A stretch of DNA of 64,000 nucleotides from Gemmatimonadota bacterium (GTDB lineage Bacteria > Gemmatimonadota > Gemmatimonadetes > Gemmatimonadales > GWC2-71-9), in contig JAABRY010000001.1 of the NCBI GenBank assembly GCA_011390645.1, positions 7,192 through 71,191 on the forward strand, given 5' to 3'. The notes beneath the pieces were generated by a model, which was given only the letters and a program-made list of their open reading frames with translations, did not search any database and was not told where the DNA came from. This document shows positions 30,168 through 30,284 of this stretch, piece by piece. A program made the translations under genes and the position numbers. Every line of letters begins with the position of its first letter. Position 1 is the first letter of the stretch.

Positions 30168-30284
30168 CAGCGAACGGCGAACAGCGAACCGCGAACCGAT
30201 GAAGCGGTGAAATGTCAAAGGTGAAACGGGGATGACTGGAGCCCCCGTTTCACCTTTCACCTTTCACCTTATGCCGTCTGCCGT
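30168..30284. repeat. Heptad array plus GGTGAAA-heptad palindromic hairpin (copy B)
   Basis: Nine in-phase heptads follow the TGA (CAGCGAA CGGCGAA CAGCGAA CCGCGAA ...). Hairpin at 30206-30268: GGTGAAATGTCAAAGGTGAAACGGGG / CCCCGTTTCACCTTTCACCTTTCACC. Confidence 0.9.

Follow-up and report, generated by a model that had tools for sequence, protein, structure and literature searches.

The 64,000-nt stretch analysed here (contig JAABRY010000001.1 of GenBank assembly GCA_011390645.1, from a Gemmatimonadota bacterium of the order Gemmatimonadales; referred to simply as the window) has a GC content of 67% and carries, between convergent genes for an S9 and an M1 peptidase, a spacer of 117 nt (30168-30284) that forms one long nested imperfect palindrome. 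The arms of its hairpin are tandem 7-nt repeats (heptads). The core is one copy of a dispersed element resembling repetitive extragenic palindromes (REPs) and the REP-derived hairpins called REPINs, of the form (GGTGAAA)n-CGGGG, a short loop and CCCCG-(TTTCACC)n. Degenerate CAGCGAA-type heptads flank the core and extend to both stop codons. By analogy with known hairpins, the whole is probably a REP-like 3′-end hairpin that acts as a bidirectional terminator and/or an mRNA 3′ stabiliser; its arms would evolve by slippage, and its copies spread between loci. The locus is one more case of inverted heptameric simple sequence repeat (SSR) arrays and REP-like palindromes, a known but poorly understood type of bacterial repeat.

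The S9–M1 spacer and its hairpin

Gene names were backed by Pfam for the S9 peptidase (27741-30167, plus strand; PF00326, Peptidase_S9), the M1 peptidase (30285-32240, minus strand; Peptidase_M1), an M14 peptidase (32487-35171, minus strand) and an acyl-CoA oxidase (36483-38510); gene starts were refined after the initial list of open reading frames (ORFs). In that list, the S9 gene ends with a TGA at 30165-30167 (plus strand) and the M1 gene with a TGA at 30285-30287 (minus strand). The S9 C terminus, ...MVP*, is kept in orthologs.

The outer 5′ arm (30168-30198, plus strand) consists of 4.3 NNGCGAA units (CAGCGAA CGGCGAA CAGCGAA CCGCGAA CCG), the first of which begins at the base right after the S9 stop. 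Its lag-7 identity is 0.88, and Tandem Repeats Finder (TRF) called it at period 7 (30167-30196, 4.3 copies). It pairs weakly with 30273-30286. The linker ATGAAGC (30199-30205, plus strand) is followed by the inner 5′ arm GGTGAAA TGTCAAA GGTGAAA CGGGG, the middle unit of which is imperfect (30206-30231, plus strand; inverted-repeat search and alignments). The loop ATGACTGGAGC (30232-30242, plus strand) and the inner 3′ arm CCCCG-(TTTCACC)3 (30243-30268, plus strand; TRF 30248-30270, 3.3 copies, 100% matches) complete the core. According to the inverted-repeat search, the inner arms are 26 nt each and 92% complementary, with an 11-nt loop. The outer 3′ arm (30269-30284, minus strand) reads, in the sense of the M1 gene, ACGGCAG ACGGCAT AA right after the M1 stop, and on that strand it is in a single register with the GAAAGGT units.

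The first-pass annotation of this DNA had read the letters after the S9 stop as nine consecutive 7-mers in a single 7-nt register, running into a hairpin with a TTTCACC x3 arm. The letters and coordinates are exactly as it gave them, and the arm does end at 30268, 16 nt short of the M1 stop (TCA on the plus strand, 30285-87). The single register holds formally, but the spacings of the GAA landmark in the 5′ heptads are 7, 7, 7, 8, 8 and 14, so that the GGTGAAA sub-array sits 2 nt out of homologous phase with respect to the NNGCGAA sub-array. A single array of nine heptads was therefore ruled out; there are two arrays, offset by 2 nt and joined by two 8-nt steps, both of which lie in the linker.

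Over 30168-30230 the lag-7 identity was 0.62, a value reached in none of 20,000 shuffles; other lags gave 0.15-0.40, except lag 14 (0.53). RNA folding of the spacer gave −54.4 kcal/mol for the plus strand (z = −4.5) and −65.3 kcal/mol for the minus strand (z = −6.3).

Copies of the hairpin in the window

The unit GGTGAAA occurs 28 times in the window against 3.4 expected, and the two-unit pattern GGTGAAAGGTGAAA (up to 2 mismatches) 28 times against 0.13 expected. Five GGTGAAA/TTTCACC hairpins were found, at ~30.2, 32.4, 39.2, 46.3 and 57.4 kb; they are numbered c1 to c5, c1 being the core described above. Copy c2 (32404-32470, minus strand) lies 17 nt past the M14 stop (32487-89) and 164 nt ahead of the M1 start. 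Copy c3 (39186-39252) is situated between convergent DUF2911 (stop 39147) and SCP2 genes, and the SCP2 stop TGA (39237-39) is within the array. Copy c4 (46259-46322, minus strand) is 16 nt past the stop of the agmatine deiminase (PAD) gene (46338), upstream of an ECF sigma gene. In c5 (57361-57436, plus strand), the (GGTGAAA)5 arm begins 36 nt past a Ser/Thr kinase stop (57325).

When aligned, the five copies match over ~62 nt. In each, one arm is perfect and the other contains a variant unit (YGTNAAA), the common layout being GGTGAAA-YGTNAAA-GGTGAAA-(C)GGG facing a perfect (TTTCACC)3 arm. Copies c1 and c2 both have TGACAGCGAA...TGAAGC and a YGTCAAA variant unit, the linker ATGAAGC of c1 having its counterpart in c2 (..CTGAAGC); c4 and c5 both have CGTAAAA. 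The loops are 7-19 nt and are not conserved within the window. All five copies fold strongly on both strands (z = −4.5 to −6.6). An Rfam search of the whole window at gathering score returned three tRNAs only and no RNA family at the heptad hairpins. Since independent slippage would not reproduce the common variant units, the alignments show that the copies are related by descent or conversion and have been spread or homogenised between loci.

Two further hairpins have related units. The first (CGGTGAA, 51268-51457) has the arms (CGGTGAA)3-CAGCGAAC and GTTC..GCCGTTCGCCGC, and the stop of an upstream OMP-like ORF (51272-74) falls within its first unit. The second (GGTGAGG GGTGAGG GTGAACA / TGTTCCCCCTCACCCATCACC, 58572-58654) lies between convergent NlpE-like and S15 peptidase genes.

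Strict arrays were confined to one period in the window: 14 at period 7, and none at periods 5, 6 or 8-12. Thirteen of the 14 are outside the cores of coding sequences (CDSs), the exception being an array in the tail of the acyl-CoA oxidase. At least 10 types of heptad unit are present.

Position of the arrays relative to genes and polarity of the arms

When the sequence downstream of the 46 stops of the window was pooled, a lag-7 peak of 0.337 was obtained against about 0.29; in the window no lag-7 peak appeared upstream of starts, and CDS interiors showed lag 3 only. In the first 70 nt past the stop, 9 of the 46 genes exceeded a lag-7 identity of 0.5. All seven purine-first hairpins of the window are 0-40 nt from a stop codon. 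Copy c2 is much nearer to its stop than to the next start, and c5, which is 19 nt from the next start, is the exception in this small sample; for c4 the next start is not fixed, and the placement of the Pfam domain puts it at or below about 46180-46240. Arrays touch the stops of the S9, M1 and M14 genes and contain those of SCP2, an HI0933-like gene and the OMP-like ORF.

From such neighbourhoods a post-stop heptad module recurring at unrelated genes had been proposed. This proposal is supported in part. The recurrence at gene ends is real, and the outcome named as its refutation, no period-7 signal at stops beyond the first loci, is not what the window shows. TGA-CAGCGAA is found again behind the M14 stop, (CAGCGAA)3.7 closes the acyl-CoA oxidase CDS at 38481-38506, and at the 51.3-kb hairpin one CAGCGAA unit stands beside (CGGTGAA)3 (51269-51297; complementary arm 51428-51457). 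Heptads do not depend on a stop codon, however: one set of arrays takes up the spacer that leads to the M14 start (35180-35336), and others occupy tail-to-head spacers at 6.2-6.7 kb (6250-6676). The units are also of many kinds, and relatives have plain hairpins or units of period 8 or 10 at the corresponding positions. They are adjacent to stops because the arrays fill the entire short 3′ spacer and at times overrun the CDS end, as with the 11-residue tail of the acyl-CoA oxidase and the SCP2, HI0933-like and OMP-like stops that lie inside a unit. Hence, the heptads are arms of dispersed extragenic palindromes together with ordinary intergenic short tandem repeats, and not a stop-linked module. 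It may be noted that (GGTGAAA)3 has TGA in all three frames. A designed three-frame stop module was considered and rejected, as the units of three relatives described below (L008, L002 and L006) have no stop codon; we take the three-frame TGA to be a side effect.

The nearest reading to a post-stop module is that the arrays are binding sites for a sequence-specific protein or the ribosome (GGUGA resembling part of an extended Shine-Dalgarno sequence); each heptad would attract a post-transcriptional regulator or the anti-Shine-Dalgarno sequence and so tune translation termination, re-initiation or mRNA fate. The purine-rich units often hold GGAG, GAGG or GGTGA, c5 stands just ahead of a start codon, and regulators (S1, Csp, CsrA) have been proposed by MacGregor for TAACTGA heptads (PMC4679880). 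The units are, however, wholly different between close relatives at the same gene ends, with many units per genome, the purine arm is base-paired in the hairpin, and arrays also occur between convergent genes, where re-initiation is impossible. We consider this explanation very unlikely.

The polarity of the arms was uniform. The A/purine-rich arm was 5′ and the T/pyrimidine-rich arm 3′ in 27 of 27 inverted array pairs, counting all loci in the window and relatives, and the same was true of all 10 pairs with units other than GGTGAAA. Because an inverted repeat reads alike on both strands, this polarity is a real binary property. The order of A-tract, hairpin and U-tract is the polarity of bidirectional intrinsic terminators, and the purine-first arms match it.

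Hairpins at the same gene ends in relatives

The best S9 relatives are Gemmatimonadales metagenome-assembled genomes (MAGs) with up to 83% identity and conserved gene order; further relatives were gathered via the PAD gene. The relatives carry L numbers below. At the 3′ ends of the S9 and M14 genes, L008 (83% S9 identity) has period-8 hairpins, (AGAGAGAA)n/(TTCTCTCT)n, beginning at the stop. At the same ends there is a (CGAGAGG)/(CCTCTCG) hairpin in L002, a (TAGGGAG)/(CTCCCTA) hairpin in L012, ACGAGAT and ACGATAG hairpins in L006 and L031, and a period-10 array in L020. Plain GC-rich or REP-like hairpins take this position in L003, L004, L005, L009 and L030, and a REP-like family (GGGCCGACCGTCAGGTCGGCC / GCCGCGGCCGTCAGGCCGCGG) lies behind the S9 and M14 orthologs of L004, L009, L005 and L030. 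Considering S9, M14 and other orthologous 3′ ends together, inverted tandem-repeat hairpins were found in L008, L002, L012, L006, L031, L156 and L157. The hairpin is thus kept at orthologous gene ends while its sequence is not.

In L006 (~17030-17225) and L031 (~16975-17135), both convergent genes end in Arg-stop (CGATAG/CGATAA), contained in the first heptad unit on both sides. Judging from these letters, the two gene ends seem to have served as the seed of the array, or to have been overwritten by it, in a symmetrical fashion.

L157 (85% PAD identity) has three GGTGAAA hairpins, behind kinase, LVIVD and SSF stops, with a common loop GATGCTGTCACYGGAYCCCG. The loop of c1 together with its GC clamp is similar to this conserved loop. 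The five window copies and the three of L157 are all extragenic and stop-adjacent, as expected of a dispersed multi-copy extragenic palindrome. At its PAD stop, where the window has c4, L157 carries a direct period-8 array of AGAGAGAA. In L156 (91% PAD identity), the c3 site is occupied by a GGTGAAC-type hairpin and the c4 site is empty; past its acyl-CoA oxidase stop, the CAGCGAA unit is found in the opposite orientation (CTGTTCG x8). The acyl-CoA oxidase orthologs of L008 and L157 end ...PIAR*, without the 11-residue tail of the window. The kinase hairpin differs in orientation, its perfect five-unit arm and its loop being opposite in L157 (1041-1125) and the window (57361-57436); the cause could be an inversion between the arms or separate insertions in the two genomes. 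Array lengths were identical in the four contigs L157-L160, which come from related samples. The view from L008 that each genome has a private unit was dropped, as L157 has both GGTGAAA and AGAGAGAA families and L156 both GGTGAAC and CAGCGAA-type arrays at orthologous sites.

Upstream of M14, four genomes have direct arrays that are orthologous to one another (window 35180-35336, L008 18100-18165, L156 12975-13060, L157 20840-20875). They vary in copy number and in 1-2 nt of the unit (GTAGGTC / GTGAGTC / GTTAGTC; ATGTTGG x2.5 to x5.7).

Beyond these genomes, over 120 metagenome contigs, with GC contents of 33-68%, contained (GGTGAAA)3, often with other heptads adjacent, and with TTTCACC downstream, not upstream. 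None of the 120 metagenome contigs with (GGTGAAA)3 was from the same species as the window. One Bacteroidetes MAG contig, L026 (41% GC), has arrays of CCAGACA, CGCTATT, GAATAGT and GAAAGCG at 2539-2641 and 21125-21187. Given these arrays and the GC range of the metagenome matches, the heptad phenomenon is not confined to high-GC Gemmatimonadota.

This distribution bears on the idea of a DNA uptake or genome-tagging sequence, whose inverted pairs in terminators would arise by biased uptake and recombination, like the DNA uptake sequence (DUS) and uptake signal sequence (USS) of Neisseria and Pasteurellaceae. An over-represented, lineage-restricted motif in inverted pairs downstream of genes would agree with it, but the breadth of the metagenome matches shows that (GGTGAAA)3 is not lineage-specific. 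Moreover, DUS and USS are not tandem arrays, and several unrelated units coexist here. Such a function is extremely unlikely.

Spread of the copies

Two processes are visible in the compared sequences: SSRs evolve in place, as orthologous arrays drift in unit and copy number, and hairpin elements are copied from one locus to another, as the GGTGAAA hairpins share variant units and, in L157, a loop. Since this GGTGAAA family recurs in L157 with its loop conserved, local slippage is not the only way in which the copies spread; they are also copied.

One rival account is slippage without function. In this account, 7-8-nt units slip at a high rate in the lineage, arrays arise wherever they are unconstrained, and pre-existing terminator hairpins gain repeated arms with no added function. 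The exclusive period 7 in the window, the many unit types (including direct arrays that have no partner), the drift of copy number and unit at orthologous arrays and the units seeded by the local stop context are all in its favour, as is the slippage hypothesis of the literature (Mrazek 2007, as summarised in PMC4679880). It does not account for a unit that comes back, with the same variant unit and a similar loop, at no fewer than five loci and in another genome as well; nor does it explain the parallel growth of the two arms or the 27:0 polarity. As the whole explanation, we regard it as unlikely.

Alternatively, the hairpin may be a selfish palindrome, similar to REPINs or to miniature inverted-repeat transposable elements (MITEs), copied in trans by a REP-associated tyrosine transposase (RAYT; IS200/IS605-like Y1) or another transposase. 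Its build-up at 3′ ends would then come from tolerance of insertion, and RNA effects would be incidental. The variant units common to the copies and the loop conserved in L157 fit this account. So do the REP-like hairpin families in the same spots of L004, L009, L005 and L030, nested structures in which one palindrome lies within the loop of another, and the variable occupancy of the c4 site (occupied in the window, empty in L156 and taken by a period-8 array in L157), along with the kinase hairpin inverted with respect to L157. Moreover, c4 is flanked by a 9-nt direct repeat, CCTGTCGCC (plus strand; 46237-46245 and 46325-46333), and the L156 spacer is without the element. This repeat could be an insertion footprint. 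It is the sole case among eight copies, the other seven having no flanking duplication, and a single 9-mer has a chance of ~8% over eight trials (null probability 0.011 per element). With no consistent target-site duplication, a cut-and-paste MITE was rejected.

Copying in trans also has to contend with the absence of any transposase or RAYT among the scanned ORFs of the window, though 64 kb says little. The window loops are not conserved, and many units coexist, some of them seeded from the local stop context (CGATAG in L006 and L031), which argues for growth in situ. Tolerated insertion alone does not account for the 27:0 polarity. We hold a selfish element to be rather unlikely.

A possible role at mRNA 3′ ends

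The reading that we prefer is the REP-like 3′-end hairpin. The element would be transcribed as the 3′ untranslated region of both convergent mRNAs, and the transcript of either strand would fold into a long interrupted stem. Such a stem may end transcription or weaken it, either unaided or with the help of a factor, and/or it may hold off 3′-to-5′ exonucleases. In the manner of E. coli REPs and bidirectional terminators, it would set the 3′ end of each of the two transcripts and reduce antisense read-through. The arms, being short tandem repeats, would lengthen and shorten by slipped-strand mispairing, period 7 being the favoured unit length of bacterial long SSRs. Their complementarity may be maintained because only paired versions persist, or one arm may be copied from the other by template switching.

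As in bidirectional intrinsic terminators, there is a GC clamp with an A-rich 5′ and a U-rich 3′ side, of the same polarity on both strands, right after both stops. At c1 there is the clamp CGGGG/CCCCG, with a loop of 11 nt against the usual 3-8 nt and a stem of 26 nt, much longer than in those terminators. The tail past the clamp, UUUCACCU, has 4 U in 8 and is not a canonical U-tract (at least 5 U in 8), and the loops of the hairpins are 7-19 nt. A consensus terminator scan of 27000-40000 called no heptad hairpin, and on this result a canonical intrinsic terminator was rejected. The scan, the tail and the loop lengths weigh against the preferred reading.

Several other points do so too. It is from position, polarity and analogy only that we infer a role as terminator or stabiliser. 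Stems of ~26 bp could be RNase III substrates, which would destabilise rather than protect the mRNA, and the purine-first polarity could also stem from purine loading of the sense strand. On the side of copying, the missing transposase in the 64 kb of scanned ORFs and the flanking direct repeat at only one of eight copies, mentioned above, count against the reading as well. Finally, direct arrays without a partner (38481-38506; 35180-35336; the PAD end of L157) show that a large share of the heptads does not call for any function as a hairpin.

A more far-reaching reading is that an active process (a RAYT-like enzyme or palindrome-driven template switching) installs and homogenises register-degenerate tandem-unit hairpins at gene 3′ ends, where they would serve as iterated, U-tract-poor bidirectional terminators, in Gemmatimonadales and perhaps in many other bacteria whose spacers are rich in heptamers. 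Termination would be iterated because every further unit makes another stem end with UUUC behind it. At present this appears improbable. If true, it would explain what the long-noted excess of heptanucleotides in bacterial genomes does and how it arises.

Comparison with known repeats

The closest precedent is the inverted heptad arrays of Xanthomonas (GGGAATC), which are ~90% intergenic, lie at a mean of 28 nt from the upstream ORF and form 70-75 convergent inverted pairs (Rehm et al. 2015, PMC4692102). The same paper also covers the intergenic heptameric repeats GGGGA(C/T)T of Nostoc. Like both, the period-7 arrays described here are overwhelmingly intergenic and nearer to the upstream stop than to the next ORF. 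Like those of Xanthomonas, they include convergent inverted pairs able to form stem-loops (seven in the window, 27 over all loci), they vary in length and sequence among close relatives, and their function is likewise not established. Unlike GGGAATC, the units GGTGAAA and CAGCGAA lack a G-tract (at least three G in a row) and hence have no G-quadruplex potential. The phylum, Gemmatimonadota, is also different, the copies share variant units (and, in a relative, the loop), pointing to copying between loci, and in relatives units of period 8 and 10 stand at these sites.

Cyanobacterial short tandemly repeated repetitive (STRR) sequences, reportedly described by Mazel in 1990, are known mainly as direct arrays. 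The arrays of the window resemble these and other bacterial heptanucleotide long SSRs in having at least three tandem 7-nt units, several heptamers per genome, an intergenic location, an excess of period 7 and a proposed origin by slippage. Unlike STRRs, their prominent form is an inverted pair whose hairpin lies directly against stop codons. Among bacterial long SSRs, heptanucleotides form the largest class, and polymerase slippage is the hypothesis put forward for them (Mrazek 2007, as summarised in PMC4679880).

The hairpins share several traits with the REP, bacterial interspersed mosaic element (BIME) and REPIN families of Proteobacteria: they are imperfect palindromes, lineage-specific and scattered over gene 3′ ends and the spacers of convergent genes, and relatives differ in which sites are occupied. 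The plain REP-like hairpins at the same positions in L004, L009, L005 and L030 add to this likeness. REP arms are not tandem, whereas the arms here are tandem repeats that change length in whole 7-nt units. The head of a REP has a conserved 5′ tetranucleotide of the GT(A/G)G type. The arms here begin GGTGAAA, and the copy alignments contain no invariant GTAG/GTGG head outside the heptads. REPs and REPINs also go with a cognate RAYT gene, which the repeats often flank; among the scanned ORFs of the 64-kb window there was none. The E. coli REP325 is a partial, partly Rho-dependent terminator and an mRNA stabiliser (bioRxiv 10.64898/2026.03.23.713779).

The TAACTGA heptamer repeats of Beggiatoaceae, Cyanobacteria and Bacteroidetes are direct, of a single unit and mostly a few nucleotides upstream of starts, and translational control has been proposed for them (MacGregor 2015, PMC4679880). 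They are similar in being abundant intergenic heptamer arrays of patchy phylogenetic distribution; unlike them, the hairpins of the window are inverted, multi-unit and stop-adjacent. A paper on intrastrand triplexes (PMC4666352) was set aside as not applicable, and a look for literature on such repeats in Gemmatimonadota found nothing relevant.

Heptanucleotide repeats are the commonest bacterial long simple repeat, without an established function or mechanism. The locus and its orthologs provide a clean comparative series, in which plain hairpins and tandem-repeat hairpins of differing units and periods stand at the same gene ends, with strict polarity and with arrays that start at or contain the stops. 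With this series, a Gemmatimonas relative that can be cultivated would allow a direct test of the terminator or stabiliser hypothesis. The arrays affect annotation as well: they give rise to ORF extensions that are spurious and to short C-terminal tails that are real (acyl-CoA oxidase, SCP2), and short-read assemblies are likely to break at them. Apart from this comparative and annotation value, the feature is an ordinary non-coding repeat.

Other repeats and minor observations

The array in the tail of the acyl-CoA oxidase gene (38481-38506, plus strand) can be written as (GCGAACA)3.7; it is direct and codes for the 11-residue C-terminal tail RTANSEQRTAK (tail region 38478-38510). The block at 35180-35336 (minus strand) is a mosaic of five different heptad arrays between the HI0933-like stop (35328-30, in a TCGTTAG unit) and the M14 start (35171). 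The block at 6250-6676 (minus strand) comprises direct arrays of CAGAGAA, TCCAACA and GACCTAC and of CCCAACG/ACGACCA, the last array beginning 4 nt past the stop of a CopD gene (6680). Between its heptad stretches 6250-6332 and 6612-6676 lies a small ORF, MPTYVYQSI... (6365-6553, minus strand), whose start we take, by eye, to be FmdB-like.

Among the few coding heptad arrays is one of TGGATGT (57715-57746; 4.6 copies, 84% matches), within the NlpE-like CDS (57459-58532).

An unrelated palindromic element, TGTCATCCCGAGCGCAGCGAGGGATCTCCA ... TGGAGATCCCTCG ... CGCTCGGGATGACA, occupies 51303-51423, nested in the loop of the 51.3-kb heptad hairpin, and gives rise to a spurious ORF start (..HPERSEGS..). 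Look-alikes are found inside a period-8 hairpin of L008 (~13145-13255) and after the S9 gene of L004 (~12585-12680). Probably the element represents a second family, MITE- or REP-like, with hairpin loops as its targets.

In L157, at 4300-4575 and 6985-7100, GC tetraloop hairpins (GCGCCGC-GAAG/TGAG-GCGGCGC) alternate with pyrimidine-rich arrays (GTCCACC, GTTCACC). They lie downstream of the GGTGAAA hairpins, giving composite multi-hairpin 3′ regions.

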